Shown: positions 1 to 17,936 of the stretch, in pieces
How positions within the stretch are numbered: the first letter of the stretch is position 1
Layout of the letters: the number at the start of each line of letters is the position of its first letter
Source: Vulcanimicrobiota bacterium
GTDB lineage: Bacteria; Vulcanimicrobiota; Vulcanimicrobiia; Vulcanimicrobiales; Vulcanimicrobiaceae
Reading direction: 5' to 3'
Assembly: GCA_963777315.1 (NCBI GenBank)
Contig: CAVZQC010000003.1
Span: forward strand, 44,344 to 108,343
Length of the DNA: 64,000 bases
Translations under genes and position numbers: made by a program
Notes under the pieces: generated by a model
The model's database searches: none
The model's input: the letters and a program-made list of their open reading frames with translations, nothing else
What the model was told of the DNA's origin: nothing

Positions 1-742
1 CAATTTGCACGTCCAGCGCCGCCTCCAAGTCTTTGACCGTTTCTATCTCGTGGACCAGGCTCGCGTTGTCGAGGCGTTTCACCTGCGGCTGCTGCGTCGT
101 AAGTGACTGTGCCTGCATGCATTGGGCGAAATCATCCTCGCGAAACTCGCCGCGCAATTGCAGGATAGCGATGGTTTGGCCACGCCCGGTGGCCTGGGGA
201 AAGCGGTAGCGTTCCGCTATTTCGGCCGCGCGAAGCGGCGATTCGCGGCGTTGCAAAGCGCCCAACCTCTGCGAACGCGGCCACTGGTGAAACCCGAACA
301 CGCCCCGCAGTAACGCCGCGATTTCCGCCGGCGCATGCAACGCGCCGTCGCGATGGCGGAAACGGTATCCGCTGGAATCCTCGAACGTCGCGACGGAAGC
401 TCCGAACGCTTCGATGGAACGATCCAACGGTGCGCGCAAGACCAAGCAACGCCAGTGCTGTTCGAGGACTTCAATGCGGTGACGAGTGCAGTATGCCCGA
501 AATTCATCGATGGCGCTATCGTCGGCCGCGCTTGCCTTAACCAGGGCCGCGCGTTCTGCATACGTTCGCGCGCCGATGGAAGTGTGGCCGATCTCGTACG
601 CTCGGCTCACATCCACCGCGTTCTGCGCGTGGGGCTGCAGCCAGGCCGTCAGTAAGACCTCGTTCTCCGCTCGAACGTCTCCTACGCGCGTACTCGCCGG
701 CCACTGTGTGCGTTTCGTTCCTGGAATGGCAACGCTCGTCAT
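1..742 (-). CDS. S53 family (sedolisin/kumamolisin-like) serine protease with pro-domain; runs off the left edge of the window
   Basis: Absent from the ORF track. Manual translation from ATG 742 is open to position 1: MTSVAIPGTKRTQWPASTRVGDV...LRGVFGFH...EIAERYRFPQATGRGQTIAILQLRGEFREDDF...KDLEAALDVQI. This matches the kumamolisin layout (Y.FP..G.GQ.IAI.. and the catalytic E-x-x-x-D motif, EAALD). Confidence 0.85.
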   Translation of the reverse strand, partial: MTSVAIPGTKRTQWPASTRVGDVRAENEVLLTAWLQPHAQNAVDVSRAYEIGHTSIGARTYAERAALVKASAADDSAIDEFRAYCTRHRIEVLEQHWRCLVLRAPLDRSIEAFGASVATFEDSSGYRFRHRDGALHAPAEIAALLRGVFGFHQWPRSQRLGALQRRESPLRAAEIAERYRFPQATGRGQTIAILQLRGEFREDDFAQCMQAQSLTTQQPQVKRLDNASLVHEIETVKDLEAALDVQI

Positions 743-828
743 GCGTGGCAGATTGGACAAGGGTGAAACGGAACCCGCCGGCCGGCGCGTTCGGCGGAGG
801 GAAGCAACCCCAGCACGAAGCAGGTCGT

Positions 829-3627
829 ATGGGGATGCAGGCTGAGGCCGAAAACACGGTCTCCGTTCTCCCTACCGGTACGGTGACGTTTTTGTTTTCG
901 GATATCGAAGGCAGCACCGTGCGGTGGGAAAGCGCGCCCGATGCAATGGCGCTTGCGTTAGCGCGCCATGACGCGATGATGCGCGAGCTCATCGAAGCGC
1001 ACGGCGGATACGTGTTTAAAACGATCGGAGATGCTTTCTGCGCGGCCTTCGCAAGTACGCCTGAAGCGACCGCCGCCGCCCTTGACGCCCAGCGCGCCCT
1101 TATCGCCGAAGATTTTTCGCACGTCGACGGACTGCGCGTGCGCATGGCACTGCATTCGGGAACTTGCGGCGAGCGCGGCGGCGACTACTTCGGTCCCACC
1201 GTCAATCGGGTTGCGAGGTTGCTCGCAATCGGTCATGGCGGTCAGGTGCTGCTCTCGCGTGCCTGCGCGGAGCTCCTACGCGGTGACACGCCGCAATACG
1301 CTCTGCGCGATCTCGGCAGCCACCGGCTCAAGGACCTCTCCCAACCGGAATACGTCTATCAGCTGATGGCGCCGGAATTGCCCGACGCGTTTCCGGAGTT
1401 GCTCTCGCTCGATCATCTGTCAAACAATTTGCCGGCTCAATTAACGTCGTTCGTCGGACGCGAGGAGGTGATGGGTGAGATTAAGGCGCTGCTCGCGCAT
1501 AACCGGCTCGTGACGCTCGTCGGAACGGGCGGTGCGGGCAAGACGCGTTGTGCGATTCAGGTCGGCGCAGAATTGCTCGACGGTTCGGGCGACGGCGTAT
1601 GGTTAGCCGAACTGGCGCCGATCTCCGACGCCTCGCTCGTCACGAGTGCCATTGCGCGCGCATTGAACGTACAAGCATCGCCGAACCGCCCGATACTGGA
1701 TACGCTGATCGGTTATCTCAAGCGTAAACGGCTGCTGCTGATTCTTGACAACTGCGAACACGTCATCGACGAAGCGCGAACCGTCGCGAGCGCAATACTG
1801 CGGGCTTCTCCCGAGGTGCGTATTCTCGTAACGAGCCGTGAGGCGTTGAATATTGCGGGCGAACGGCTCTATCGCATGCCTTCGCTTGCCGTGCCGCCTA
1901 CAACGCAGGCGCTATCGCCGCAGGACATCCTCGGATTCGGTGCCTCATTGCTTTTTAGCGACCGAGCCTTGTCCGTGACCGATCGATTTACGTTGACGGA
2001 TGAGAACGTCTCGCATGTCGCGGAGATCTGCCGGAGACTCGATGGGATTCCACTGGCCATTGAACTGGCGGCCGCACGGGTGAAAGTGCTCTCGCCCAAG
2101 CACATCGCGCAGATGCTCGACGAGCGCTTCCGTTTGCTGACCGGCGGCGATCGCAATGCGCTGCCGCGCCAGCAGACCATGCGCGCCCTGATCGATTGGA
2201 GCTACGATCTGCTCACGGACGACGAACGAGCGCTTTTCCGCAAACTCTCGATCTTCGCCGGCGGCTTCACGCTGGAGGCCGCCGCGATCGTATGCACCGG
2301 GAGCGAGATGGATGAAATCGCCATGCTGGATCCGCTTTCGTCGCTCGTAGACAAGTCGCTCCTGCAAGCCGAGCAAGTTGAAAGTGGGACGCGGTACCGA
2401 TTCTTGGAATCCACGCGGCAATATGCCCGCGAGCGTCTCGCCGAGCATGGAGAGCATGCAGCGGTTGCACAGGCGCATGCAACCGCATTTCTGACCCTTG
2501 CTGAAAAGCTGGGGCGAAGTTGGGAGACGACGTCCGATCGGGAGTGGTTCGCCCAGTTGGAGCCGGAGCTGGAAAACTTCCGCGCAGCGTTGAGCTGGTC
2601 GCTCGGCGCGCGAGGCGATGTTTTGCTTGGGCAGCGGCTGGCGGGGGCGTTGCATCAAGCGTGGTGGTCGCTGGCGACGGCAGAGGGGCGCAGGTGGGTG
2701 CAGATGGCGCGCGATCTTACCAACGACCAGACGCCCCGGCCGGTGATGGCCGTACTCGATCTCACGGAAGCCGAGCTCGCCGCGTCGCTCGTACAATATA
2801 CGGCAAGCCGTACGGCGTGTGAACGTGCTCTGGGGCACTACAGTGCGATTGGCGATGCCATGGGAATTGCGTACGCGCAGCGATGTCTGGCCCTCGCGCT
2901 GATCTTTCTGGGAAAGATCGAAGAGGGTGAGGCGCTGCTGGGGCCGGCCCTATCGCAAGCTCGAGCGCTGGGAGCGCGAAGACTGACGGGAGTCGTGCTG
3001 CAGACGCTAGCGGACGCGCGTCATTCGGTCGGTGACGTCAGCGAAGCTCGACGCCTGCACGCCGAAGCATTGGCCAACCTTCGAGCCGTCGGCGCGGAAC
3101 GCACGGCCGCAAACGTCTGTGTAAATCTCGGCGAAGCGGAGTTTCACGGCGGAAACGCAGACGAAGCGCTTCGATGGGCAAGTGAGGCGCTCGCTACCCA
3201 CCGGTCGTTCAACGCCACGCGCGGTATCGCGTTTGCGCAGATCAACATGACGGCATATTTGACGGCGCTCGAACGGTACGATGAAGCGCGCCTTTGCGCG
3301 CGCGCGGCGATCGGCGCGGCACGCGACGCGCAACTCCAAGTAGGTACGGCATGGGCGCTGCAGCATCTTGCGGCAACGGTTGTGCTGCGCCCGGCAGATC
3401 CCAAGCAGGCGCGTGACGAACGGCGTTGCGGGACGCGTCTTTTGGGCTACGCCGATGCGCGCCTGACTGAACTGGAATCGTTGCGTGAATTCACCGAGCA
3501 GCAGGAGTACGAAAAAATGCTTGCCGCATTAGGCGCGGCGTTAGATGCGGATGAAGTTGCAAAGCTCATGCGGGAAGGCAGCCTCTGGAGCGAAGATCAA
3601 GCCGTCGCCGAGGCGATGCTCATTTAA
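829..3627 (+). CDS. Class III adenylate/guanylate cyclase domain + P-loop ATPase (AfsR/LuxR-type STAND) + TPR-like helical repeats
   Basis: LPTGTVTFLFSDIEGST, GDAFCAAF and GPTVNRVARL (cyclase); NNLPAQLTSFVGRE, GTGGAGKT, LILDNCEH and LDGIPLAIELAAAR (ATPase). Start moved from 706 to ATG 829. Confidence 0.9.
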   Translation: MGMQAEAENTVSVLPTGTVTFLFSDIEGSTVRWESAPDAMALALARHDAMMRELIEAHGGYVFKTIGDAFCAAFASTPEATAAALDAQRALIAEDFSHVDGLRVRMALHSGTCGERGGDYFGPTVNRVARLLAIGHGGQVLLSRACAELLRGDTPQYALRDLGSHRLKDLSQPEYVYQLMAPELPDAFPELLSLDHLSNNLPAQLTSFVGREEVMGEIKALLAHNRLVTLVGTGGAGKTRCAIQVGAELLDGSGDGVWLAELAPISDASLVTSAIARALNVQASPNRPILDTLIGYLKRKRLLLILDNCEHVIDEARTVASAILRASPEVRILVTSREALNIAGERLYRMPSLAVPPTTQALSPQDILGFGASLLFSDRALSVTDRFTLTDENVSHVAEICRRLDGIPLAIELAAARVKVLSPKHIAQMLDERFRLLTGGDRNALPRQQTMRALIDWSYDLLTDDERALFRKLSIFAGGFTLEAAAIVCTGSEMDEIAMLDPLSSLVDKSLLQAEQVESGTRYRFLESTRQYARERLAEHGEHAAVAQAHATAFLTLAEKLGRSWETTSDREWFAQLEPELENFRAALSWSLGARGDVLLGQRLAGALHQAWWSLATAEGRRWVQMARDLTNDQTPRPVMAVLDLTEAELAASLVQYTASRTACERALGHYSAIGDAMGIAYAQRCLALALIFLGKIEEGEALLGPALSQARALGARRLTGVVLQTLADARHSVGDVSEARRLHAEALANLRAVGAERTAANVCVNLGEAEFHGGNADEALRWASEALATHRSFNATRGIAFAQINMTAYLTALERYDEARLCARAAIGAARDAQLQVGTAWALQHLAATVVLRPADPKQARDERRCGTRLLGYADARLTELESLREFTEQQEYEKMLAALGAALDADEVAKLMREGSLWSEDQAVAEAMLI

Positions 3628-3683
3628 GCGTACCAGTGCCGCGTTGCGCTCAGATGCACAGCGGCGCCACCGAGGAAAACGCT

Positions 3684-4886
3684 TCAAGGCTTTCCGCGCT
3701 TCTTCGTGTGCCACCAAGTCCAGGATGGCCTTCGGCGCGTTTTGCGCAAAGCGGGCTGGGCCGCCGAAGGGGCGACCGGAGCAGGGCGAAAGTTCATGAT
3801 GACGACGCGAAGTATACCGGCCACCGGCACCGCGAGCAGAAGGCCCGGAATACCGGCCAGCTCACCGCCTGCGAGCAAGGCGAGCACGACCGCAAGCGGC
3901 GTCAACTCGACGCTCTTGCTGACGACGTTGGGAGCGATAATGTGGCCTTCGAGCTGATTTATCACAACGATTCCCAACGTGACGAACAGCGCATTTTCTA
4001 CGCCGTTTGTGAATAGAGCGATGAAGAAGGCCGGGAGCCAACCGGCAATCGCGCCGATGTAGGGAATGACGTCAAGAACGCCGGCAACGGCGCCGATAAG
4101 TGCCGCATATTGCACGTGCAATCCCAGCAGCAGGAGCGTCACGAGCGTACCAACGATCGCGGCGACGATGAGCTGCCCGCGGATAAAACCGCCGACGACG
4201 TGATCGAGATCGGCAATGATTTTCAGCGCCTTCGGCTGCGCGTTCTTGGGGACGAACCCCAGGAGGGTTCGCTTGAGCCCTTCAGATTCGATCATCAGAT
4301 ATGCCGCCACCACCGGAATGATGACAAACAGCGCCCCTACGGTCACGATGGAGACGAGGACGGGCAATACGGTACTGGCCACGCCGGCGCCGTATTTCGA
4401 AATGTTCAGCTCGAGCTGCGCGGGGAAATCCTTGAGGTAATCACGCAGCCCCGACGGTAGATGCTTGGTAAATGGATTGTTTGGATCGACTAGCGCGGAT
4501 TGCGCATGGTTCACCAGCCTGGGAGCATCGTGAACGAGCTGCTGCGCGTCGGCACCAAGGATCGGCGCGGCGATATAAATCCCGAACGCAATGAGCAGCG
4601 CGATCCCCAGATACACGATGGCGATGGAGACACCGAGCGGGAGCCTGCGATTCAGCCGGGTTATGAGCGGAAAGACGAGATATGCAAAAAGTACCGCGCC
4701 GATGACGACGATTGTAAAGGTGCGAACCCGCACCAAAAACTCCAGCGCCTTATAGAGAATGAAACCTGCGAGTATGGCGAGCCAGCAGATGCGCACCGCG
4801 TACAGCACGCGATCGCTGCGCTGGACGAGCCGTAGCCGCGCGGTTTCTTCCTGTTCTTGACGGCCGGGAACCGTTCCGTCCTCCAT
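3684..4886 (-). CDS. AI-2E family transporter
   Basis: Multi-TM protein with GFIRGQLIVA, IPYIGA, NQLEGHIIAP..VSKSVEL.PL and GLLLAVP motifs. Confidence 0.9.
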   Translation of the reverse strand: MEDGTVPGRQEQEETARLRLVQRSDRVLYAVRICWLAILAGFILYKALEFLVRVRTFTIVVIGAVLFAYLVFPLITRLNRRLPLGVSIAIVYLGIALLIAFGIYIAAPILGADAQQLVHDAPRLVNHAQSALVDPNNPFTKHLPSGLRDYLKDFPAQLELNISKYGAGVASTVLPVLVSIVTVGALFVIIPVVAAYLMIESEGLKRTLLGFVPKNAQPKALKIIADLDHVVGGFIRGQLIVAAIVGTLVTLLLLGLHVQYAALIGAVAGVLDVIPYIGAIAGWLPAFFIALFTNGVENALFVTLGIVVINQLEGHIIAPNVVSKSVELTPLAVVLALLAGGELAGIPGLLLAVPVAGILRVVIMNFRPAPVAPSAAQPALRKTRRRPSWTWWHTKKRGKP

Positions 4887-4966
4887 TGCGCAGCCGCTCC
4901 ACTCATGACGATCGCTGCTCCCACCGTTGGTGGCGCTCCTCGCAGTATTTCACTGCGTTCGCCGGC

Positions 4967-6475
4967 TCAAACGATTTTGACGCGAAATTTTGCAACCACT
5001 TTGCCGTTGACCGGCAGCGAGCCGCCGCTATAGGTAAAGGTAACCGTTCCGCCGGACTGAGCGGGCGCGCACGAGAGCGGCCCGGGCGTGGTCACGCAGG
5101 TTGCGCTCGCCGCCACGTATGCCGTGTATTGCGGGATGGGGTCGCTGATGGAAAACGACTGCAGCGCGAACGCGCGGTGATTGGTAAACGTCAGCGTGTA
5201 TTCCAGTACGTCGCCGGGCAGTCCATTCACCGTATTTCCCGGCCCGAGGGACTCGGTGATGTTCGCGACCTGTTTGACGAGATTCGCCGCGGTAAACGTC
5301 GTCGTGACCGCGTTCGAAGAAAGTGTTTGCCCACCGTACTCCGAGGGGTCGAACGGAACGCTTCCCTGCGCGGTATTGACGGCGCTGCCGCTCGAGGAGC
5401 TCGTCGAGCCGACCACGTGCAGCGTCGCCGTAGCGCCCGCGCTCAAGTTTGAAGCGGTTGCAACGACGGTTTGAGCGCTGGCAGCCGACGTTACGGCGCA
5501 AGTGCCGGCGCCGCCGGTCACCGCGCATGATGGCGGTGTGATAGACGAGATTGTGATGCTCGCAGGGATCGGGTCGGTCAGCGAGGCGCTCGCGGCGGCG
5601 AAATATCCCGTGTTCTTGAGCGCGACGTCGTAGAAGAGTGAATCGCCCGGACCGGCAGCGCCGGTGCCCGCCTTCGCGATCGTGAATGTGGCCGGTACGG
5701 ATGCGAGATCGTTGACCACGTCGCTTCCGGTCGCAATCGCGGTGTGGCTGCCGACAAGCGCGCCTGCGGTGGTGTATTCCCACAGCGTCCAAGGAGAACC
5801 GCTGCCGATTTGCTCGCAGGCGGCCAGGTCGCCGTTGGGCAAAAGCGCCGCGCCCGTAAGGCTTCCGCTGGGCCCACTGAGCGTTACGGGACCGGTGACT
5901 GCGCCGGTCGTTGCGTTGATCGTGTACAGACTGTGCGTCGCAACGACGTAAAGCGTTTCGTTGTTGGCTGCAGTCGGAGCGGCGACGATGTCGCCGTTGG
6001 TACCGATCGACGTGCTCAGCGTAAGCGTCTTTTGAACCGCGGCCGTGGATGGGTTTACCCAGGCGACGGTGTTTGCGCTGGTCATCGTCACGAGGCATCC
6101 CGCAGCGCAATACTTCGTCGTAGGATCGAACGACATGCGCGCCTCCGTACCGGACAAACCGGAGATCGATCCCACGATCGTTGCGGCACCATAGGCCGTT
6201 GCCGACGTCGGCGCGTTCGGATTGAAAGCCGCCTTGACCAGCTGCCCGGAAGCATTCGAAACGTACAGATTGCCGCTCAAGTCCTGCGCCAGATCCTGGG
6301 CGCTGGTTCCCGAAAAAATACTCCCGTACGATTGAACGACGGAGCCCGACGTGGTGTCGATGAGATAGACGCCGGCGCTGTCGCTGAGCACCATGATGGT
6401 TGCCGCGCGTCCGGCAGCCATCGCACCGATCCATCCCAGCACGGCCAGCGCCGCCGCAAGAAGATAGCGGCGCAT
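4967..6475 (-). CDS. Secreted protein: beta-propeller-like N-terminal region plus two DUF11 domains (candidate tip adhesin)
   Basis: Signal peptide MRRYLLAAALAVLGWIGAMAAGRAA; propeller-like repeats (DLAQDLSGNLYVS, LYTINATTGAVT); DUF11 motifs GPGDSLFYDVALKN..LTDPIP and LPGDVLEYTLTFTN..ISDPIP. Confidence 0.75.
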   Translation of the reverse strand: MRRYLLAAALAVLGWIGAMAAGRAATIMVLSDSAGVYLIDTTSGSVVQSYGSIFSGTSAQDLAQDLSGNLYVSNASGQLVKAAFNPNAPTSATAYGAATIVGSISGLSGTEARMSFDPTTKYCAAGCLVTMTSANTVAWVNPSTAAVQKTLTLSTSIGTNGDIVAAPTAANNETLYVVATHSLYTINATTGAVTGPVTLSGPSGSLTGAALLPNGDLAACEQIGSGSPWTLWEYTTAGALVGSHTAIATGSDVVNDLASVPATFTIAKAGTGAAGPGDSLFYDVALKNTGYFAAASASLTDPIPASITISSITPPSCAVTGGAGTCAVTSAASAQTVVATASNLSAGATATLHVVGSTSSSSGSAVNTAQGSVPFDPSEYGGQTLSSNAVTTTFTAANLVKQVANITESLGPGNTVNGLPGDVLEYTLTFTNHRAFALQSFSISDPIPQYTAYVAASATCVTTPGPLSCAPAQSGGTVTFTYSGGSLPVNGKVVAKFRVKIV

Positions 6476-9400
6476 CTACCGGCTTGCCCCCCAGCCGAAG
6501 ATGCGATCGATGAGGGTTGTGAACGTGAAATAGAATCCCTTGCGTTGCGGCTTTCCGCTCAACGTCGGATCGATGCTCCCGGAAAAATTGTATCCGGCTG
6601 CCAGACGCGCGTCGTTGCCGATTGTGTAACCCGCCTCGGCGGCCACGTCGGTCGTTTGCGCACCGGGAACGTTGGCCGCATTCAACATCCGCAGCTCAGC
6701 GCCCACGTCGAACCGCGTTCCGACGTTTTGACGGGCCCGTAGTCCGAAAAGTGAGGTGTGGGCGGCGTAATAGCCGTCTCCGTCGAGTTTCTCGGCCACT
6801 CTTCCAGCCAGTTCGAACGTATTCCATGGCCGGTACACTTCTTCGAAGGAAAGCACGTCGGTGCGCTCGGGCAGCAAGGACGAAGTTCCGGTGAGGCGCT
6901 CATAGCCGAGCAACGATACCAAGGTGTCGTTGTTCTGCGGACGATAGGCGAGCGAGATGCGGTCGTCGGCGGCGTTCGTGCCGCTTCCGGAAACCTGATT
7001 GAGCGTTCCGAGCACCGCAATATTCGGTCCGACGTGGCCGGTAAGACCTCCGCTGAACGTGGTTCCTCCCAGCGACCCGGTACGCGACTGATATGCCAGG
7101 GCCGCGCGAAAATCTTTGGAATCGGAATAGGCAACCGAGCCGCCGTAGACGGTAAATCCTGCGGCGCCCGCGCCGGACGCGTTCGCCTGCTGCATCGTGA
7201 GGTTTCCACTGAGCCGTTTACCGATGCTGAATTTTTGCGTGACGCCGAGCGCGGAGTAGATGTCAGTAGCGTTTCCGGTATCCGTAATCAGATAATCGCT
7301 CTCAACGTTCATGGCCGGGCTCATCGCGCGTTCGAAGCCGATTTGCGTCGAACGCGTTCCAAGGTTCGTCAATCCGAGCGCGCCTGCAGATTGCGCGAAC
7401 GCCGTTGCAGCAGAATCGCTGAGCAGTTGCCGCACGAACACTTTGCTGCGGTCGTCGAACGCATAACTCAATTCAGCGGAGGTTTGTGCCGGCTGCGTGG
7501 TCTGCGCGGTTGCTCCGGTCAGATCCTGATCGCGCTGAACGTTCAAGCCGACGCGCTTGCTCGGTTTCCAGTCGAAGCCGAGCTGAGCTTGCATTTGCGT
7601 GGAGCGTTGCAGCACATTCGGCTCAGGGGAGCTGCCCGTGAGCGGCGGCGATATGGTCAGTGGAACGTTTTGCTGCGCGTGCGCCTGGACGCCGAACAGC
7701 AGCGAAATCGTTTTGTTCACCGCTGTATTCCACAGCAGGCTCGCGTTGTTTTGCGCGTCTTCAACGCCCGCTCCATGATTGCGCTGGCCATCGGCTTCGA
7801 GCGTCAACGTCTGGCCGGGCGCTGCATGACGAGACCACGCAACGCGATAATTGGTAAAGCCCGGCGAGGATATCCCGCCGAACGGGTCGGCGAAACCGGC
7901 TGCGGTGTCTTGATACAGCGCGTCGATTTGATTGGGGCCAATGCGGTCGTTCAAGGTGAGATCGATCGCGTTGCCGCCGCCCCCGCTCGAAAGTTGACCC
8001 CCCGTAACGCCGGGCGCCGACCCCGAACTCGACGCGTGTGAAAGTATCCACTGGCCGCCCGGAAGCTTTCCGGTTAATGATTGCGAGACCAAGGAGAAGT
8101 TCGATGCTCCGGTGGCATCGTTGACGTAGGAAACGCGCAGTTTGGCTGCCGCTGAGCCGCCGATATCGACCCATGCGTTGCCTCCGGTTACTGCCGAATG
8201 CGTGGCGATTCCTTGATACTGATACTGCAGCTGCAGCACCTGAGGATTGAAATAGGGGTCGAACGGCAGCGGAACGTTGATGAAACGCAGCGTTCCGGTT
8301 GCATAATCTATCGTGTAATCGACGTTTCGAATCAACGGCGTTTGCGAGATGACGGCGCCGGTTCGCCGGTCTATCGACGCAAGGGTGATGTAATCGGATC
8401 CGACGACGATGTCGGGCTGCAGCGGCTGCGCAAGCGTCAAAAGGCCGCTCACGGGAATGGTCGTCGAGACGTACGCCACTTGATTGCGCGCCGTGAACGC
8501 GTTCACATGAATGTGAGAATCCTTGTTCGCCAACTCGACTTTTGCACCCGAGAGCAACTGTCGATACGCGCCAACCGCGTTGTCATCGCCGGCGGTTGCT
8601 TGAAATTGTCCCCACATGATACTGTCGCGTCCGCTGTCGAGGCGTGCGTACAACCGATCGTTGGACTCAAAATCGGAAGATCGCGTCGAGGAATCTCCAT
8701 AGGTTTGATACGGGCGTTCGTTCGGATCGTCCACGAAGGGACCATACGAAGAGAGCGGGGCAAGCGTGTTCTGCGACTCGTACGCAACGGTCAGCAGAGA
8801 CTGTTTGCCGACGCGGCCGCTGGCAAACAGTGCAGCGCGTGCCCGGCGCGCGCTGCCGCCGTCGTCTACGCCATCGCCGTCGACCGCAATCGGCACGGCT
8901 CCGGCGCCTACGCTGACCAGTCCGTTGACCAGCGGTTTACGCAGATAGGGCGCGACGTACAGCGTTTGTGCAGACGTGAGTTCGCCCGCCGCGATTTGCA
9001 GCGTGATGTCGCCGGCCGTCAGCCCGGGAACGATGGGAATGCCGACATGCCCTCCGAGGCCGAGCTGCGCGGTGAAAACCGCGTTTTCGCTGCCGGGCGA
9101 GGCTGTGGGCGCCGGCGACGCGCCGGTGGTCGCCGACGGTAAGCCGGCGGATGCAAAGCGCGCATCGCCGCGCATGAGCGTGACCTTCACTGGGACTCCC
9201 GCCATCGCGGGATCCCCCCAGCGGTCCGTCGCGGAAACATCGAGCAATACGGCGCTTCGGCCGTCGGCCACGAGCGTGCCTTGCAACTGGGTGCGCAGCG
9301 TTGCGGGAGGCCCGCAACCGTAGATTAACGCCGTTGCCGAAGCTCCGCGCAACCCTGCTGCGCCTATCGGGGTGGCGACGAGCTCATTTGGGCCGGGCTT

Positions 9401-9805
9401 GAGGACGACGCCGAAATATTCGAACTGCGCCGTTCCCCCTTTGGCCGAAGCGGTACGGCGTCCGATGCGGGTAAGCGGCACGAGTTCGCCGTTCACGCGC
9501 AGCTCCACGCCGGCGCCGTACACCGTGTCGACGACGACTCGCGTTGCAACTGAAGGCGATACCGTTTTGTCGGACGGAAAAGCGAACGATGCCGTCAGCG
9601 GGCCGGTCGCGGTGTACGATTCATGCGCAAGATCCGCGTACTTGATCGAATTCGGCGACTCGGACGGTGCCGGGCTCGGGCTGGAGATCGGCGCGGCAAC
9701 GTCGTCGCCGGTGGCCCCCGATCGCGTCGCCGCCGCGCAGATCAACGAAATGGCAATCATCATGGCGCCGATTCGGCGAAGCGCATGTGCGATGGCGATT
9801 GTCAT
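6476..9805 (-). CDS. Large outer-membrane protein: Ig-like periplasmic domains plus a long amphipathic beta-strand region (putative beta-barrel translocon)
   Basis: Signal peptide after ATG 9805, which forms an ATGA overlap with the upstream stop. LVADGRS..L.V.ATD.WG (Big_1/invasin-like), LIRNVDYTIDYATGTLRF, and many alternating-pattern strands ending GFYFTFTTL. Confidence 0.7.
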   Translation of the reverse strand: MTIAIAHALRRIGAMMIAISLICAAATRSGATGDDVAAPISSPSPAPSESPNSIKYADLAHESYTATGPLTASFAFPSDKTVSPSVATRVVVDTVYGAGVELRVNGELVPLTRIGRRTASAKGGTAQFEYFGVVLKPGPNELVATPIGAAGLRGASATALIYGCGPPATLRTQLQGTLVADGRSAVLLDVSATDRWGDPAMAGVPVKVTLMRGDARFASAGLPSATTGASPAPTASPGSENAVFTAQLGLGGHVGIPIVPGLTAGDITLQIAAGELTSAQTLYVAPYLRKPLVNGLVSVGAGAVPIAVDGDGVDDGGSARRARAALFASGRVGKQSLLTVAYESQNTLAPLSSYGPFVDDPNERPYQTYGDSSTRSSDFESNDRLYARLDSGRDSIMWGQFQATAGDDNAVGAYRQLLSGAKVELANKDSHIHVNAFTARNQVAYVSTTIPVSGLLTLAQPLQPDIVVGSDYITLASIDRRTGAVISQTPLIRNVDYTIDYATGTLRFINVPLPFDPYFNPQVLQLQYQYQGIATHSAVTGGNAWVDIGGSAAAKLRVSYVNDATGASNFSLVSQSLTGKLPGGQWILSHASSSGSAPGVTGGQLSSGGGGNAIDLTLNDRIGPNQIDALYQDTAAGFADPFGGISSPGFTNYRVAWSRHAAPGQTLTLEADGQRNHGAGVEDAQNNASLLWNTAVNKTISLLFGVQAHAQQNVPLTISPPLTGSSPEPNVLQRSTQMQAQLGFDWKPSKRVGLNVQRDQDLTGATAQTTQPAQTSAELSYAFDDRSKVFVRQLLSDSAATAFAQSAGALGLTNLGTRSTQIGFERAMSPAMNVESDYLITDTGNATDIYSALGVTQKFSIGKRLSGNLTMQQANASGAGAAGFTVYGGSVAYSDSKDFRAALAYQSRTGSLGGTTFSGGLTGHVGPNIAVLGTLNQVSGSGTNAADDRISLAYRPQNNDTLVSLLGYERLTGTSSLLPERTDVLSFEEVYRPWNTFELAGRVAEKLDGDGYYAAHTSLFGLRARQNVGTRFDVGAELRMLNAANVPGAQTTDVAAEAGYTIGNDARLAAGYNFSGSIDPTLSGKPQRKGFYFTFTTLIDRIFGWGASR

Positions 9806-11973
9806 CGTGTATCCTGCAGAGCGAAGTTGACGTCTTCCATGAGGCCGTCGTCGAAGAGTCCGTGCACCAAACGCTGCATCGACCACGTGCTGTTCATGCG
9901 CGCGTTCGAGAAGGGACGAACGGTCTGCGGAATCGTCGCCGGATCCACGCGTAGCACGTGCATCCCGGGCCTCACGGCCGCGAACGAGTAGCGTCCGTTC
10001 TGATCCGTAAGGACGGAGCTCCCGTCCTCCAGAAAGATACGCACGCCCGCAATGCCCTCATCGCCTGTGCTGAACCGTCCGGTGCGATGCACGTCCAGAA
10101 ACACGCGGCCCGTGATCACGCCGCGCTGCGAGAACGCTCCGGCGACCACGCGTACGTCGGCAGTTGCGCCGGCCGTCGCCGAAACGGCGGTTCCCGGAAT
10201 CTTCGCTGAAGCGGTCACCGTGTTGACGAGCGTCGTTCCGGCCACCGCTGATGGAAAAACGAGGGCGGCGTAGACGATGTCGTGCGTCGTCGAGGGAGGT
10301 AACGCCGGAACGTTCCAGGTCAGAACGCGCCCGTTTACCGAAGGTTCCAGCGGCGTTGAGTCCATGCGCGCCGTGCCGGGTGCGTACGATTCGCCCGGCG
10401 GAAGCACGTCCGCTACTTGCGTTTCACCGAGTCCGGATTGCGATGGATTCCCGAATTGGATCGTGTAGATCAGCCGATCTCCGGGCTGCGCGACCGGCTT
10501 ATCCACCGCTTTGCTCACCGAGATCGATCGCGCGGTGAACAGCGGGACGTTTCCGAACAATCCGAACACGTTGGCAAGCGTTACGTTGGCGGAAGTCAGC
10601 ACAAAACCACCTGCTTGCGCCAGCGGCTGACCGTCCAGCGACGAAGCCGTGACGTCGTACAGCATCTTGCCGGCATCGAGTTTTATAATCAGACCGATCT
10701 TGCGGTTCATGAATCCCGGAGCGGTAATCGTCAGGAAAAACTGCGATCCCCCGGGCGCAATCATGCTCGGCGCGACCGCGAAGGAATACGCGCCGTTCGC
10801 GCCGGTGGTGAACGGATTCTGCGTGTTCGCCGTATCGACGGGCGGCACGCCGCTCATATTCACCGGTTTACCGTTTGCATCCAATAGCGTGACGACTGCT
10901 GCGCCCACCGGGCGATCGGCATTTGAAGGATCGAAAACGAGGTTTGCAGTCCCGATCAGCACGCTCGCAGGCGTCGTATTGGTGGCGGATACGCCGTCGG
11001 CCGCCACTTGCGCAACGTTGGTGAAGGTCGCACCGGTCGTCGAATTGGCCAGAACCGAGGCAGTAAAGGAGACGTCGAACGTCGCCCCGGCCGCAACCGA
11101 AGGAATGCGGACCGACAGCGTCCGACCGGAAAGCGTCGCAGCCGAACCCGCCGGCGACCCGTCGAGCAGCACCGACGAAAGATTCGCTTGCAATCCGGCC
11201 GGAACAACATCGGTGACCACCACGTTCGTCGCTGCCGCTTCGCCCGAGTTCTTCGCGCGAATGTCGAACGTGACGTCGGCGCCGGGGTTGGACTGTACGA
11301 TCAGCTGCTGATCGACCGTTTTCGATATCTGCGTCGCAGGGCCGCCGATCCCGGTGAATTGCGGACCTTGCGCTGCCAAGGCCCATTGCATGCCGGTGTC
11401 GCTTTGCAATCCGTTGGAGGTACCTGCGACCGTGGTTTGCGCCGTAATGGAAAGCGGAAACGCCGTTCTAAGCGCGATGCCGCCCGTTGAAACGACGATC
11501 TGCAACTCAATGGAGTCACCCGGCGGGACGCTGGGCGAAACCGTCGATCCAATCGTCGCGGGATACGATGCGCCGCCTGCGACGAACGCCGCGGAGAGCA
11601 GCTTACCGGGACCGGTGCTTGCGGTCTGGATCGTGTACGCGTCGGTGACGTTGCTGACGTTCGTGATTGTGAACGCGCGCGTCACGTTCGATCCGGCGGC
11701 GTAGGCGTCGGTCGCCGGATCGACTTTCGATTCCTTCGGCGTGACGGTGAGCGCTCCGACCGGCGCGTACGTTGTAATCACCGGGTTCGAATCGGCAACA
11801 TAACTCTGCCCCGAACCGTCTTCATATGTGGCGGTCGCGGTGTTCTGCACTTTGGAGCCTGCCGGAGTCGCGGTAATCATCGGCCTGAAAGGCGCCGCCT
11901 GCAGCAGTCCCGGTGCGAGCGCAGCCAGCGCGAACACGGGGAGAATCTGCCGAACAACGCGTGCGATGTTCAC
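9802..11973 (-). CDS. Secreted protein with two complete DUF11 domains and a C-terminal SdrD-B-like domain
   Basis: Signal peptide; [96 protein letters not shown]. Confidence 0.8.
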
Positions 11974-11997
11974 GCCGGATGCGCTAAACGCTTCCCG

Positions 11998-14331
11998 TTA
12001 TTTCGCGATCACCGCGAAGTACAGGATGCCGCCGACCTGTGGCGTCAGCACGAACGTACCGCCGCCGACTTGATCCATGAACGCGTTGGATGCGACCGCG
12101 TTGCCGTTGTCGTTGGGCGTGCTGGATCCGCCGACGACCGCGTACGTCGAGCCCGTGGTGTTGTCGCCGCAGGTTCCCGCAACGTTGCCGCACTGATTGG
12201 TTACCGCAGCACCCGAGGTGAGCGCTTCCTTCAATCCACCCGAATACGTGGCCCAGGTATTCGTGCCGGCGCCGCCGTCTTCGGTGATTTTTAGCGTTCC
12301 CGCGACCATCGCGAGGGCAACGTTTCCTGCTCCACTGACCGTGCTTACCGGAAGCGTATTGAGATAGGCGACTTTGTATTGGATTACGCCGGCCGGACAA
12401 ACGCCGTTCGCCGGAACGGAAGCACCCGCGGGACACCCGGTTGAGAGCACGGTTGCGGTTTTTTGCAGCGAGATGAAGCCGCCCGGCATGAGCACGTGAT
12501 AGGTCGAGTTACTGTACGATCCGGATGCTTGTGAGGTCGCGAGCACCTGAACGTATATTGGATTGAAGTCCGTCGGCGCGTTTGCTCCGCTTGCGCTGCT
12601 GTATTTCACGCAGTACGGCGCGGTCGCGCTCGCCGAAACGGAGATCTGATAGTTGCCTGAGCCGTCTTTGGTAGCCAGATTCGTGCAGTTATAGTCCGTG
12701 TACACGCCGGTCACCGTGACGGCCGCCGGCAGGCTCGGAAACGTAAAGGAGTACGTGTCGTTGCCGCTCGACGTATTCTGAAGATCGCCTGGAACGTTGA
12801 GCACCGTGCCGCCGGGGAGCTGGGCGCCGAACGTGCCGTTGGATCCCAGACTCGCTTGCGTGAAATCGGTGTTGGTAGTGTTGCTGCCGCAGGTCGCGGT
12901 GTTGTAGCAGCCGGAAGCGCCGGCGGCGCCTTTCGGGCCGTTGAGCACACCGGGAACGTTGCTGGTCGTAGTATTCGACAGGCCGTTGGCCGCAGGATTT
13001 CCGCTCGCGGCATTATACGCGGTCGATGGATCGGCGGTACCGTTATTGGGAACCGTTCCCGGCGCGATGCCCGGACCTTCTACAAAGCCCGCGTTGTCCG
13101 CGTATGCCGTGACCGCGACGTTCTTGATCGCATTTCCGGGCGGCAAGTTGGTGAGCGTGAGCGTAAACTCCAGTTCCGCTTGCGCGTTGCTGACGTTGCC
13201 TGCACTCGACCCCGACGACCCGACCGGAATCGCCCCGGTACCGGTGATGTAAACACCCACAAAGTACGCGGTGCCGGCGGATGGAGCGGTGGTCGTCCAG
13301 CCGGATTTTCCCGTGTTGTCCGTGGTGTAGACGATCGTTGCGGTGTCGCCCGCGATGCTGATGTTCTTGGTGATGCTGGCGCTCGAAACGGTAAGCGGCA
13401 CGCCGCCGTTTTGCGGAATCTTGTCGGTGACCAGGATGCCGTTGTTGGTTGCGCTGAGCGCCGAGCCGGTAATCGTCGTACCGCTTTGGCGAATCGACTG
13501 CAGCAACTGCGCGGGCGCAGCGCCGCCGTTGTTCACGTCGATCGTGTAGGTGAGGGTATTGCCCGAAACGACGCCGGCGGTTTTCTGCAAATCCAAGCGT
13601 GCGTCGGCGACGACCGTATCGCCGTACGTGTTCGATACCGCATTGGACGTCGAAGCGCCGTAATTCGAACCGGTCCCCGGATAAGTGATCGTCGCACCGG
13701 CAACCGTAGTGCCCACGGTGCCGGATCCCGCCGTTGTGACTTTATATTGAATCGCCACGTTGATGAACGCGCCTGCTGGCAGGCCGTAGACGTTCGTGTT
13801 TGCGGCCGTCGAAAGATACGTATTGGCTGCGGCGACCGTCGCGAACGTATGCGGCACGCCGTCCGTACCGGTGACGATGACGTTTTGGAACGTACCGGGT
13901 CCGCTGACCGTCGACGTGCCGGCGCCGAGCTGAAAGTAGCCGCTGGAATTTCCGGTGTTCGTCAGCGTGTAAATGTCGTTGATGACGTTGCCGTACACAA
14001 TGGGACCGGCCGGCACGTTTTGATTTTGCGTGGTCGAACCCGGCGCAGTTCCGTTGTTCGTCGTGATCACCAGCGAAGGCGCGTTCTGGACGAACGTCTG
14101 GACTTGATTGGACGTCGAGCTGTAGGTGTTCGTGCCGTCGCTGTATGATGCGCTGGCGGTGTTGTTGATCGCGGTACCCGGCGCGGTGGAGGATGTCGGC
14201 GTTGGCATCGGCGTGTAGATTGGCGGCGGCGTGGCGGCAATGGCGGGTGAAACGCCGATTCTCACCGCCGCAAGAGCCAGCCCACAGGCCAGAACGAAAA
14301 GCAGGGCCAGCAGGCCGCGCGAAGTCTTCAC
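11998..14331 (-). CDS. Large secreted Thr/Gly/Asn-rich DUF11-containing protein (candidate major fibre subunit)
   Basis: GTG 14331 preceded by GAGGA; signal peptide; N-terminal PGTAINNTASASY; internal LQKTA..LTYTIDVNN..VTDKIP..IKNVA; C-terminal LQKTA..GVIQYKVAYLN..ILYFAVIAK. Confidence 0.75.
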   Translation of the reverse strand: MKTSRGLLALLFVLACGLALAAVRIGVSPAIAATPPPIYTPMPTPTSSTAPGTAINNTASASYSDGTNTYSSTSNQVQTFVQNAPSLVITTNNGTAPGSTTQNQNVPAGPIVYGNVINDIYTLTNTGNSSGYFQLGAGTSTVSGPGTFQNVIVTGTDGVPHTFATVAAANTYLSTAANTNVYGLPAGAFINVAIQYKVTTAGSGTVGTTVAGATITYPGTGSNYGASTSNAVSNTYGDTVVADARLDLQKTAGVVSGNTLTYTIDVNNGGAAPAQLLQSIRQSGTTITGSALSATNNGILVTDKIPQNGGVPLTVSSASITKNISIAGDTATIVYTTDNTGKSGWTTTAPSAGTAYFVGVYITGTGAIPVGSSGSSAGNVSNAQAELEFTLTLTNLPPGNAIKNVAVTAYADNAGFVEGPGIAPGTVPNNGTADPSTAYNAASGNPAANGLSNTTTSNVPGVLNGPKGAAGASGCYNTATCGSNTTNTDFTQASLGSNGTFGAQLPGGTVLNVPGDLQNTSSGNDTYSFTFPSLPAAVTVTGVYTDYNCTNLATKDGSGNYQISVSASATAPYCVKYSSASGANAPTDFNPIYVQVLATSQASGSYSNSTYHVLMPGGFISLQKTATVLSTGCPAGASVPANGVCPAGVIQYKVAYLNTLPVSTVSGAGNVALAMVAGTLKITEDGGAGTNTWATYSGGLKEALTSGAAVTNQCGNVAGTCGDNTTGSTYAVVGGSSTPNDNGNAVASNAFMDQVGGGTFVLTPQVGGILYFAVIAK

Positions 14332-14344
14332 TGATGTTCCTCGA

Positions 14345-14848
14345 TTACGGCTTTTTGGCGGCGGGATGTCCGTTGACGCGCACTTCATAGCTGAACGTCT
14401 GCGTCTTATGCGGTGCAAGTGCCCGTGGCGCGATCCAGCGCACGGCCTTGTACAACGCCGGGTCGGCGGCTTTCACGAGCGTTCTTCGCGGCGTCTTCAC
14501 CGAAAAGGCCGGCCGGGCGGACCAGCTCTTCCCATCCAGCGTGTATTGGACGGCGGCATCGTCGCCGCGCGCAGACTGCAGAACGTATGAAGTTGCTTGG
14601 GGGATGGGGCCGACCGGAACGAGTTTGAACGCGGGAGAGGTTCCTACGTTCGTCGCGACGATCGTGTAGCGAACGAGATCGCCGGCCTTGAGCGTCAGCC
14701 CTTGCACGGGCGTTTGTTTGATTTGACCGTTGCTATGCTGCACAAGCACGCCGCTCAAATGCAGTTTCACCGCGGGTGCCGCCGCGGCTGCCGCCGAGCA
14801 GCACGCAAAAATCGCGCCCAACAGTAAAGGCGCGCGCAGAACTCTCAT
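14345..14848 (-). CDS. Small secreted single-DUF11-like domain protein
   Basis: GGGAGG RBS before ATG 14848; signal peptide; AGDLVRYTIVATNVG..GPIPQATSYV..YTLDGKSWS..VRW..FSYEVRV. Confidence 0.8.
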   Translation of the reverse strand: MRVLRAPLLLGAIFACCSAAAAAAPAVKLHLSGVLVQHSNGQIKQTPVQGLTLKAGDLVRYTIVATNVGTSPAFKLVPVGPIPQATSYVLQSARGDDAAVQYTLDGKSWSARPAFSVKTPRRTLVKAADPALYKAVRWIAPRALAPHKTQTFSYEVRVNGHPAAKKP

Positions 14849-14900
14849 GTATCCTCCCAACAGCGTGCGGTGCACCGGACCGCAACGCTTATTAGCACCA

Positions 14901-14927
14901 CTATCGGAAGGGAAGGCTCGCGCTATA
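14901..14927 (-). promoter_or_regulatory. Possible sigma-28 (FliA/WhiG/SigD)-type promoter for the DUF11 operon
   Basis: The minus strand reads TATA-N15-TCCGATAG about 50 nt upstream of the first gene; the sigma-28 consensus is TAAA-N15-GCCGATAA. Confidence 0.3.
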
Positions 14928-14993
14928 GGTGTCCGGCACTGTACATACGAAAATTTAACGCTGCACCGCTCGAGCTCAGCACGCCCACCGATT

Positions 14994-15515
14994 TCACTTC
15001 AGCGCGTCGCCGTACTTACCCGAGAGGTTCTCATTTACTTGACCGGTTTCGCCGGCCCAGGGCTGCTTGGAGTCCTTCATGTCCGTCATCGTCGCAACCA
15101 AGGTATAGCGCGGGTTGATCCTCCTGGCGGCGGTTGGAATAAAACAGCACGATACGATGCTGCAGCTTGAGATGAGCCGCTTGGACGACGATGCTCCGAA
15201 ACGTCGTGATACGTGTAATGTCAGGTCTCCGAATGGACCCTCGATGTTCGTGGCGCTCTCCAATGCTTCGGATTTCAAGACGCGTTTAAACGCCGTGCCT
15301 CGCGTACGCGTAGCGATCATAATATGTTCTTCGTACGGAGCGCTTGCAACGGAAAAGCCGCGTATTGCCTTCGCTGTCGTTCTCAGGCGGAATTGGAAAG
15401 CGTGATGTCGATAAACTGCCCGGCCGTAAACGTCCAATCGGCCGGCTTTGAAATTCGAAAGCCATCGTGCCCTTAGCGGCTTGCTCGCCTTAAGCGGCGA
15501 TATAAACGTCGGCCA
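14994..15515 (-). pseudogene. Decayed ferredoxin-NADP-reductase-type FAD-binding oxidoreductase
   Basis: Fragments across frames: GTMAFEF / TFTAGQFIDITL / EGNTR / GFSVASAPYEEHIMIATR..TAFKRVLK..IEGPFGDLTLH / FYSNRR.ED / NPRYTLVATMT..W.GETG. Several frameshifts, a stop and internal deletions. Confidence 0.75.
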
Positions 15516-15608
15516 CCAAACCGCACAGATAACGTGGACATTTGCCCCCTACGGTGCAACGATGAATCGCGACATTTTTGCTGGGCCGCGGCCCAACGCT
15601 ACGATAGT

Positions 15609-16164
15609 ATGAGGCGCATGCTGCTCACGCTCGGACATGGAACTGCGGCTGAGGATGAACTTGCGGCAATCATTCGTGGAGCGGGGTTCGAGTCGCTCGT
15701 CGACGTCCGCACTGTCCCTAAGAGCCGTCGTCATCCGCAGTTTTGGCGCAAAGAGATGGAACGCTGGGTCCCGGAACGCAGTAGAAGCGCGTATCGGTGG
15801 GAGCCGGCTTTGGGCGGCTTTCGAAAAGCCAATCGCAATAGCCATAACGTCGCCTTGCGTCATCCTTCATTTCGCTGGTATGCCGATTACATGGAGACCG
15901 ATGCCTTCGCAGTCGCGCTCGACGACCTTCTCGCGCAAACGAGGACGGCGCAGGTGGCGATCATGTGTTCCGAAACCGTTTGGTGGCGCTCTCACCGCCG
16001 GCTGATATCGGATGCCGCGCTCCTGCTTCATGGCGTTTCCTGTGCAGCACGTAATGCACGATGGCAAACTTCGGCCGCACATTCCCACGGCCGGTGTTCG
16101 CACGACGGCGGAGGGAACGCTCCGTTATGACGTACTGTTCGAGACCGCTGACGCTATGGATTAG
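15609..16164 (+). pseudogene. DUF488 family protein with a frameshift near the 3' end
   Basis: LLTLGHG, LVDVR..P.SRRHPQF, LGG.R, SFR.YADYM, MCSE.VWWRSHRRLISD. An extra base near 16038 moves the natural tail VQHVMHDGKLRPHIPT..GTLRY into another frame (stop 16164). Confidence 0.75.
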
Positions 16165-16254
16165 ACGAGATTTATATGGCAACGCCATCCGGTCGGATTG
16201 ATGCCGACTTGATGAGGCGGTACGTGTTGCTGGCCGGTAAAACGACCTTATGTT

Positions 16255-17936
16255 TCAGCGGCTCCGCTCGGGACGATTTGCGTAGCTGAATATTGGCCGC
16301 ATTGTCAGCCATGCGTAACCCGCCCCCGCTCGATGTGCTAGCGCCTGCAGTGTATCGATTTCTTCGGGAATATAGTGCGTGTGGTCGGTCTTCGGCCCAC
16401 AAACGATAAACCCAACCAAGTGAGTGCGTGCCGTCATCGGAAGCATGAGCGCCGCCCGCAAGGGGTGCTGCGGTGCATCGCATTCGAAGGGCTCGCTCCA
16501 GCGGCGTAGTCGCAGCACGGCCAGATCGTTTGCCGACAGTATCTCCGGCGTGCCCTGCACAATCGGGTGCGACTGTACGAACGTCGCGCCGTCTGCGGTG
16601 AAGATTGCGACGTATTGCGACTCGAGGCGCATGCGAAGCGTTTGAAGGGTTTGCGCGAGCAGCTGGCCTGGGTCGCTTATGAGATCCACCTCATGAGTGA
16701 AACGGCGGATAGCGGCCAGTGCAAGCGCCTGCGCGTGAAAGATGATGCGGTTCAAGGCCCGTTCGATATATTTGTGCATGCTCGTAATCGAAAAGCCCAG
16801 CGCAAGCGCTAAGGCGACTTCCGCGACGATGTGGAAGCGCGAATGCTCGAGCCACTTCCCGAAAGCCCAATCTGCTAACGCAAGGATGCCGATCGTTAAC
16901 GTCGTCATGAAACCGAAGACAAGAGCACGGCTCACGACGAAGCGAATATCGAACAACCGGTGCTTAAGGATCGTGTATGCCAGGGCAACAGGAGCAACAA
17001 TGAGCCACGCCTGAGTGAGATTTGCGACCGATAACGAAAGTAAACGTCCCGCCGCGTTTTCAACAGCGGTAAAGAAAACGTAGGGCAAAAAGGCGATTGC
17101 GAAAGCGGAGATGGCCCACCGTAGGCGCGTCCGTTCGTCTTGTTCCGAACGCGTATACCTGAAAATCAATACGGCAATGCCCGGCACGTAAAGCGCGGCG
17201 ATGGCTATTTGAATGTCGCTGGTGAGCGCTTGCGGATAACGTATGCCGATTAAGCTCGCGCCGCTGCAGATATTTGCTAGAGCAAGGACCGGCGCGACAG
17301 CGAACCAGAGTATTCGCTCGACGCGTTGAGGCAGGCCGGTGGGCTGCGCATTTGGAAAGCGCAGACCGAACGAAAATAGTGCGAACGGGGCGATCGCCTG
17401 CAGTACCGGGATCGTAAAGAAGCTGAAGAGTACAATGAGCCACGGCGGAAAATACTGGAGTGCCTGATCGCCGTTGTACAAGAAGGAAGAAGAAAATATA
17501 AAGAACGACCACGTCGTGGGCATGGGACGCAGCAGTACCAAAGCGGCAGCGATCAGTGTATACGCCACTAAGGACAAGACAGACTGCAATATCCGTCGCA
17601 TTCTCGGCAAGAGTTCGTGCCCTCGGATGTGCCACCAGCGTCGCGCTTTTTCCGGAAAGTAGCGGTAGCACGATGACTTGTCCGGCGTAGCCGACTCCCA
17701 CGGCGCCTAAGCTTGGTGCGTTCCGCCAGGGTCATCCGAGAGAGGTCGACAGCGTCTCCCACATGCAAGCCTTGGGCGCGCGCATAGTCGTCGACCGCCG
17801 TAACAACCCCGGCGCTATTCGTTCCAAATCCAAAGCTGCTCCAGGGCTGCCATGGATCAACGATGTCGGGGGCAGTAAATGCCAATGCGCCGAGCGCCAG
17901 AAAGAGGATAACGGAGACTCGCAAAAATGTGCGCAT
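16255..17936 (-). pseudogene. Membrane sensor-like protein (PDZ-like + multi-TM + C-terminal GAF-like domain) split by two frameshifts
   Basis: AGGAG RBS and ATG 17936 (MRTFLRV..ARAQGLHVGDAVDL); continues in a second frame (LGAVGVGYAGQ..AENATDI) and then in ORF 16255-17610 (YTILKHRLFDI..LVGFIVCGPK..EEIDTL). Shifts near 17709 and 17570-17590. Confidence 0.7.

Follow-up and report, generated by a model that had tools for sequence, protein, structure and literature searches.

Introduction

Chaperone-usher pili are assembled from a chaperone, a shaft, a tip adhesin, a terminator and an outer-membrane barrel, and N-terminal donation completes the immunoglobulin (Ig) fold of the neighbouring subunit. 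The usher barrel has 24 strands; SprA has 36. Here, a five-gene operon (g1-g5, numbered in its reading order) was analysed in a 64,000-nucleotide stretch of contig CAVZQC010000003.1 from a Vulcanimicrobiota bacterium (assembly GCA_963777315.1), referred to below as the window. The operon probably builds a covalently locked surface adhesion fibre, with g5 as tip, g2 as shaft and g3 as base, that passes through the barrel g4. The reading draws on the set of genes, the predicted barrel, the division of domains and the distribution of residues, all read from sequence and model; polymerisation and cross-linking are predictions.

Fibrillar adhesins contain CLIPPER (DUF11) domains (9IFR; 10.1101/2025.04.25.650565), and in the solved domain of that report a Lys on the first strand, an Asp 33 residues on and an Asn on the penultimate strand form the triad K715, D748 and N806. 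BsaA of Clostridium perfringens, of the TasA family (10.1101/2024.11.04.621531), is a donor-strand polymer with an intermolecular isopeptide lock. The archaeal thread Saci_0406 (PMC9715654) is also a donor-strand polymer, and the title of its preprint names isopeptide bonds. Single-chain barrels in the available literature have 8-36 strands, and three predicted 38-stranded barrels in Deinococcus radiodurans are mentioned in PMC9388160.

Results

Split CLIPPER domains in the operon

Features are given by window position, with residue numbers in brackets.

14345-14848, minus strand: g1, 167 residues, by its sequence a single acceptor-type CLIPPER domain that is incomplete and lacks the isopeptide Lys; likely a periplasmic chaperone
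11998-14331, minus strand: g2, 777 residues, likely the shaft, with three Ig domains between a donor hairpin and a C-terminal acceptor; one of the three is a complete CLIPPER (K250/D303/N404)
14086-14190 (residues 48-82), minus strand: putative g2 donor hairpin with Asn57, from conservation and a weakly scoring alignment to positions 96-127 of a complete-domain hidden Markov model (HMM)
12001-12480 (residues 618-777), minus strand: putative g2 acceptor domain with Lys624 and Asp685, which stops before the Asn strand
9802-11973, minus strand: g3, 723 residues, likely the base adaptor, with a donor hairpin (Asn44), two complete CLIPPER domains, an SdrD-B-like C-terminus and no acceptor
9814-10137 (residues 613-720), minus strand: SdrD-B-like domain of g3, the barrel's constant partner and likely docking site
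6476-9805, minus strand: g4, 1109 residues, predicted outer-membrane barrel
4967-6475, minus strand: g5, 502 residues, likely the tip adhesin, with a propeller-like N-terminus, a complete CLIPPER domain, a C-terminal acceptor and no donor hairpin

All five genes are co-oriented and tightly packed, as an earlier sequence-only reading of this DNA had reported; the 13- and 24-nt gaps, the ATGA overlap and the TAG-ATG junction that it gave were verified. A signal-peptide-like stretch, judged by eye, begins each of the five proteins, again as stated there. Its domain assignments held for g3 (Pfam DUF11 twice, 69 bits, over the cut-off; SdrD_B, 27 bits, under the cut-off) and for g1 (Pfam DUF11, 22 bits, under the cut-off; TIGR01451 over the cut-off). 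Two assignments stood in part. g2, described as a DUF11 protein, has no Pfam or NCBIfam match and is placed there by its model. In g5, described as a propeller with DUF11, the DUF11 domain was matched in Pfam (32 bits), and the propeller is supported by profile matches only (SAKe6BR, E 1.2e-7). Among aligned g5 relatives, Tachylectin was found in 2/10 and Kelch in 1/10.

The CnaA-like sandwich of a CLIPPER domain was found in g3 and g5 (PF01345 over the cut-off) and in g2, where residues 241-460 of the model fit CLIPPER 9IFR with Z 9.1, a root-mean-square deviation (rmsd) of 2.5 and 119 of 123 positions aligned. The g2 model has a pLDDT score (predicted local distance difference test) of 85, with high confidence in the hairpin region, and also resembles CnaA-type pilin domains. 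No match to the whole protein or to a filament was found for g2 in fold searches, an absence that does not exclude a family. PDB sequence searches were empty for g2 and for g5 alone, and gave weak matches only for g1. The first Ig domain of g2 (residues 82-242) resembles Thermus thermophilus TTHA1873 (7WRK; Z 9.6, rmsd 3.1, 128 aligned).

The Lys/Asp/Asn triad is complete in internal domains of g2, g3 and g5 and is divided across the termini of the same three proteins. Its geometry agrees with that of the solved CLIPPER domain, and the g3 profile aligns to 9IFR in keeping with the triad positions. The residues show a split-domain logic: a putative donor hairpin with the isopeptide Asn starts g2 and g3, and a putative acceptor, a hairpin-less CLIPPER domain with Lys and Asp, ends g2 and g5. 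The orphan N-terminal strands of g2 and g3 are seen in the translations. On the complete-domain HMM the donor hairpins align to positions 96-127 (the last two strands), g1 covers positions 16-95 only, and g1 and the g5 end both fall within 13-95.

This pattern is conserved. Internal domains retain the triad in 43-45/46 (g3) and 34-35/37 (g2) sequences. The hairpin residue Asn57 of g2 is present in 37/37 and is invariant in 150 sequences (mean identity about 31%); the g3 hairpin is of the same type, with Asn44 in 44/46. In the g2 acceptor, Lys624 is kept in 34/37, and position 685 is Asp in 31/37 and Asn in 6/37. The triad column of g1 holds Lys in 0/38 and Asp in 6/38. Forty-four fifth genes were examined, of which 33 are DUF11-like; the acceptor motif lies at the end in 28/33, and a hairpin match was found in none, although over-long starts of two open reading frames blunted the hairpin test for these. 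In distant metagenome loci the Lys and Asp motif was found in 24/25 shafts, 25/26 tips and 0/39 g1 proteins. Loci with one-piece adhesins (L046, L051, L058, L066 and L067) provided a natural control, with no match to the hairpin, g1 or g2 in the DNA examined.

The predicted outer-membrane barrel

Residues 68-288, minus strand: two N-terminal Ig domains of g4 (AlphaFold2 model)
Residues 289-1106, minus strand: predicted barrel of g4, about 38 strands (AlphaFold2 model, strand/loop parity)
Residues 444-530, minus strand: domain inserted into the barrel on its loop side (model)

That the 1109-residue protein is an outer-membrane barrel had been proposed from the sequence, and it was modelled here as two Ig domains and a closed barrel of about 38 strands (AlphaFold2, 115 sequences; pLDDT 83.7; predicted template modelling score 0.76). 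The model has 38 long strands by DSSP count; turns of 2-7 residues connect them at one side, and every long loop lies opposite. Both termini lie on the same side, and together with the short turns on one side this is the arrangement of a closed antiparallel barrel, in the model. Porin alignments extend across residues 289..1099, with about 200-250 aligned positions and the seam included, an indication that the last strand joins the first. The loop-side insertion measures 95 residues. The inserted domain (444-530) is conserved and holds the sole motif in common with SprA (488-510); it could be a plug or gate.

All matches in the fold search of g4 were partial outer-membrane barrels or Ig domains. 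BamA was the best (Z 14.6, rmsd 4.4, 241 aligned), and BamA/TamA matches cover about 240 of the approximately 810 barrel residues. A match to the whole barrel was not obtained in these searches, which does not exclude a family. Sequence searches of the PDB were empty for the barrel, and one (A2) reached the Ig region only, on GH2 enzymes. No Pfam family matched g4 (E<=0.1), nor did any TonB-receptor or porin family (Pfam, NCBIfam). The protein is predicted from its model to be an outer-membrane barrel of about 38 strands, without a match among known families. The family may already have been noticed in PMC9388160, without a function.

Comparison with described systems

The operon resembles a chaperone-usher operon in its logic. 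N-terminal donation into an incomplete Ig fold would also be common to both; the sequences are compatible with a two-strand version of it, for which covariation gave no signal. It differs in its barrel (about 38 predicted strands in g4 against 24 in the usher), in the two-strand hairpin that would be donated, in its multi-domain CnaA-like subunits, in the predicted covalent lock and in its chaperone, as g1 would itself be an incomplete subunit domain. No sortase, usher, PapD or prepilin family matches any of the five proteins (Pfam, NCBIfam), in agreement with the sequence-only reading. The usher model PF00577 did not match g4 (E<=0.1), and the same model detects a true usher on another contig of the genome (G000:C2:386243-387673). 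g1, a single DUF11-type domain of 167 residues, was not matched by the two-domain PapD chaperone (Pfam, NCBIfam).

CLIPPER fibrillar adhesins (9IFR; 10.1101/2025.04.25.650565) share the domain and the Lys/Asp/Asn triad. Their bonds are described as lying within one chain, whereas here the terminal domains appear to be split between chains and a dedicated barrel is present. BsaA is a precedent for donor-strand exchange with isopeptide locking. Unlike the present operon, BsaA and Saci_0406 are of other families, have monoderm or archaeal hosts and, in the available text, a single donated strand and no outer-membrane barrel. No TasA-family subunit or SipW peptidase was found among the five proteins (Pfam, NCBIfam).

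Type IX secretion by SprA/Sov also uses a very large single-chain barrel, and its cargo ends in a small beta-sandwich. SprA has a short motif in common with g4 residues 488-510; SprA TIGR04189 scored 13 bits over 23 residues against g4 (cut-off 200 bits). In contrast to SprA, g4 has half the length and one dedicated cargo per locus, and the fold match is partial (8gl6, Z 11.0, rmsd 9.3, 264 aligned). A search for SprA gave no match on the genome contigs, but none in control genomes either.

As in type V secretion, fused forms have an N-terminal passenger and a C-terminal barrel, and split forms are two-partner-like. Here, however, two Ig domains stand between passenger and barrel, and the barrel has two to three times the size. 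Autotransporter, TpsB/Omp85 and intimin barrel families did not match g4 (Pfam, NCBIfam). Sortase-assembled pili differ from the operon in that no sortase match was obtained in this 89.9% complete genome, and the C-termini of g2 and g5 are a beta strand without an LPXTG-type wall-sorting signal.

Two further candidates were rejected as relatives: TLP-1 pond fibrils, which are single-domain with one donated strand and Flavobacteriales-like (PMC11494351), and the Litorilinea grappling hook, described in the available text as a one-chain DUF11 trimer without a signal peptide.

Conservation and spread

Co-occurrence of the genes elsewhere, on which the sequence-only reading had staked its proposal, was found in the same phylum and in distant phyla. 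A total of 62 loci were collected, of which 16 were too short upstream and were left out of the order count. The order g1-g2-g3-g4 is kept in 41 of the other 46 (hand count; several in frameshifted pieces). The five exceptions are L035 (no g1 match), L060 (barrel alone) and L046, L051 and L058 (barrel with a one-piece adhesin). Within the phylum, 81/301 genomes match the barrel gene; nine of these are weak, Ig-only matches, leaving 72 strong. Two unpublished genomes, G213 and G263, are counted in these figures.

A phmmer search with g4 returned 1,487 clusters (50% identity) at E<=0.001 and 205 at 1e-30. The ESM Atlas matches were clusters of hypothetical proteins only, most commonly from Pseudomonadota and Gemmatimonadota. 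Relatives on plasmid records (13, 38 and 40) are from cyanobacteria, Deinococcus, Thermus and alpha-, beta- and gammaproteobacteria. All five roles are present in unchanged order in Thermus thermophilus HB8 (TTH_RS10905-10925) and Deinococcus aetherius. Variants of this arrangement are found in Synechococcus NIES-970, Acinetobacter haemolyticus and Pacificitalea.

Among 100 distant representatives, 54 have at least 1,500 residues, and 54/54 carry DUF11 and SdrD-B-like domains fused ahead of the barrel; the N-terminal hairpin was matched in 31/54. Pfam gave the same domain picture on 22 distant proteins. Eighty metagenome loci were inspected. For the 41 with 3 kb on both sides, an SdrD-B-like partner is present in 41/41 and a g2-type gene in 34/41. 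g1 is present in 42/44 distant loci that have a shaft and enough upstream DNA. The SdrD-B-like domain also forms the C-terminal end of one-piece adhesins, and the invariant core is the g3 C-terminal end and g4 only.

Several loci stand apart. In L046:2529-12823, L051:994-22819 and L058:10001-18347, from the same phylum, the barrel is found with one-piece CLIPPER adhesins of 1,800-2,450 residues; L046 and L051 derive from a single contig, where two such loci lie in tandem. Two successive tip-type genes follow the barrel in L006:11713-17293, L027:13282-16857 and L037 (up to 17255), which suggests interchangeable adhesins. T. thermophilus HB27 (L070) has on pTT27 no g1 or g2, no front part of g3 and no intact g5, and HB8 (L069) has the full set; the two form a natural mutant pair.

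Genome context

The guanine-plus-cytosine content of the operon is level with its flanks. Rfam gave no match within 3600-17000, and promoter and terminator scans of the region stayed at chance level. Omp85 is present in the genome, as are OmpA-domain genes on other contigs. Close relatives with names are Vulcanimicrobiota/Eremiobacterota. Two neighbours on the downstream side of the operon were assigned by eye.

3684-4886, minus strand: AI-2E-type transporter, directly downstream
706-3627, plus strand: adenylate-cyclase/NB-ARC/TPR-type protein

Elsewhere in the genome (G000:C2:445316-452644), two proteins of about 1,080-1,250 residues have several DUF11-like repeats and no obvious signal peptide; the barrel was not matched in the stretch scanned there.

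Discussion

Proposed assembly

The anatomy of the system is well supported. In the proposed scheme, subunits would be exported by Sec and g4 inserted by the beta-barrel assembly machinery (BAM). g3 would dock on g4 through its CLIPPER/SdrD-B-like end. As an acceptor unable to cross-link, g1 would hold donor hairpins in the periplasm, and would do so reversibly because it lacks the Lys; alternatively, one of the two hairpin insertions that it carries could be lent to a subunit. The N-terminal hairpin of each subunit would supply two strands and so complete the unfinished CLIPPER domain of the preceding subunit, with Lys624 of one g2 bonding Asn57 of the next and Asp685 catalysing. A whole CLIPPER domain would be restored at every junction, and a Lys-Asn isopeptide bond would form there. 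Since donors and acceptors allow one arrangement, the chain would run from g5 through repeated g2 to g3, docked on g4. The block encodes no ATPase, so assembly would be powered by folding and bond formation. We lean slightly towards growth from the base, tip first and with g3 as terminator; in the less favoured order, the chain would nucleate on g3 and be capped last by g5. Once complete, the chain would be equivalent to the giant one-piece adhesins served by the same barrel.

The five roles named in the sequence-only reading (chaperone, shaft, base adaptor, translocon and tip adhesin) accord with the way in which donor hairpins and acceptors are distributed. Its proposal of a pathway analogous to but distinct from chaperone-usher assembly is upheld in outline; the proposed split-CLIPPER isopeptide mechanism, and the core of g3 end and g4, had escaped it. 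On a broader scale, the chances are slightly better than even that this is an undescribed, widespread diderm pathway, in which CLIPPER fibres leave the cell through one family of barrels of about 38 strands. The fibre would be a single giant protein in some cases and in others a polymer whose subunits ligate themselves through hairpin donation and enzyme-free isopeptide bonds, with a catalytically dead decoy chaperone to time the process.

Several points weigh against the fibre. The system is known from sequences and models alone, with filament, cross-link and binding as predictions, and the strand number of g4 was taken from DSSP rather than from coordinates. The hairpins match the complete-domain HMM weakly (E 0.07 for g2, 0.5 for g3). 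Comparing g1 with g2 by profile also gave a weak match (probability 43%), which fell on an internal domain rather than on the acceptor. In the distant loci the regular expression found no anchor in 10/49 g1, 23/48 shafts and 7/33 tips. The hairpin Asn motif was found there in 47/48 shafts, a count that is not independent, as the motif partly defined the shaft class; kin are not independent observations either. Covariation was computed as mutual information with average product correction (MI-APC) on a shallow alignment of 150 sequences (effective number 70). The internal control was recovered (K250-N404 of the g2 CLIPPER domain, Z 5.4). Hairpin and acceptor were not enriched in this analysis, with 0.23 pairs per 1000 above Z 3.5, compared with 0.8-1.6 for the hairpin against other domains and 6.7 for the internal control. 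Asn57, being invariant, cannot covary.

Alternative readings

A fixed-length adhesin of three pieces, in which g5, a single g2 and g3 are joined once each into a short stalk on the barrel, is rather unlikely. It would suit the size of g2, which at 777 residues is large for a pilin, and the service of one-piece adhesins by the same barrel family. However, g2 holds both a donor and an acceptor, and the terminal acceptor of many fifth genes is most like that of g2 itself (best BLAST match g2), so self-joining of g2 looks allowed. The dedicated g1 that accompanies g2 (42/44) also weighs against this reading.

It is improbable that the same fibre forms without covalent links between subunits and that Lys, Asp and Asn are structural remnants. 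The bond is absent in some DUF11 domains (10.1101/2025.04.25.650565), g2 acceptors carry divergent insertions, and Asn replaces Asp685 in 6/37. Against these stand the invariance of Asn57 across 150 sequences at about 31% mean identity, and the retention of Lys in shafts and tips with its loss from g1.

A periplasmic strut, with the chain inside and tying the barrel to the cell wall, is very improbable. The g3 end and the Ig domains of g4 are periplasmic by topology, and OmpA-type domains are fused to or adjoin some relatives. Yet a hypervariable N-terminal domain of propeller- or lectin-like type forms the end of the chain, the operon has no wall-binding gene, and the barrel gene is patchy (72 strong of 301 genomes), unlike a core envelope part.

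That g4 is simply a large porin or receptor of an ordinary kind, with another exit for the DUF11 proteins, for example the separate classical usher (PF00577, on another contig), is scarcely credible: some relatives are auto-annotated as 'TonB-dependent receptor', but a CLIPPER/SdrD-B-like partner is fused or adjacent in 54/54 long relatives and 41/41 long-flank loci, and g4 itself matches no such family.

Literature and significance

Full-text literature searching found no description of this operon type; subscription papers and supplements could hold more. From gene order, TTHB179-183 and DR_B0037-40 are probably old locus tags of such operons. DR_B0037, probably a g2 relative, appears in the available text of PMC5382914 only in a mass-spectrometry table, from the culture supernatant of a mutant, and DR_B0038 appears in a heat-stress list (PMC6888292). 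Other papers retrieved were set aside: 'DUF11' in PMC8343143 and PMC11821415 is DUF1137 and DUF1102, PMC10787695 concerns archaeal DUF11 adhesins, and PMC13297417 borrows a DUF11 signal peptide only. The system for fibre export and assembly is real and conserved, and has apparently not been described.

If this is true, surface fibres would have a new route across the outer membrane, and subunits would be covalently linked in diderm bacteria. The predicted translocon would be larger than SprA and than any solved single-chain barrel. Covalent pili would be made without sortase in Gram-negative cells, and the two halves of the split CLIPPER domain would amount to a natural tag-and-catcher pair that ligates itself. 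A function would also be given to a large family of hypothetical proteins (the 1,487 clusters at 50% identity, E<=0.001).

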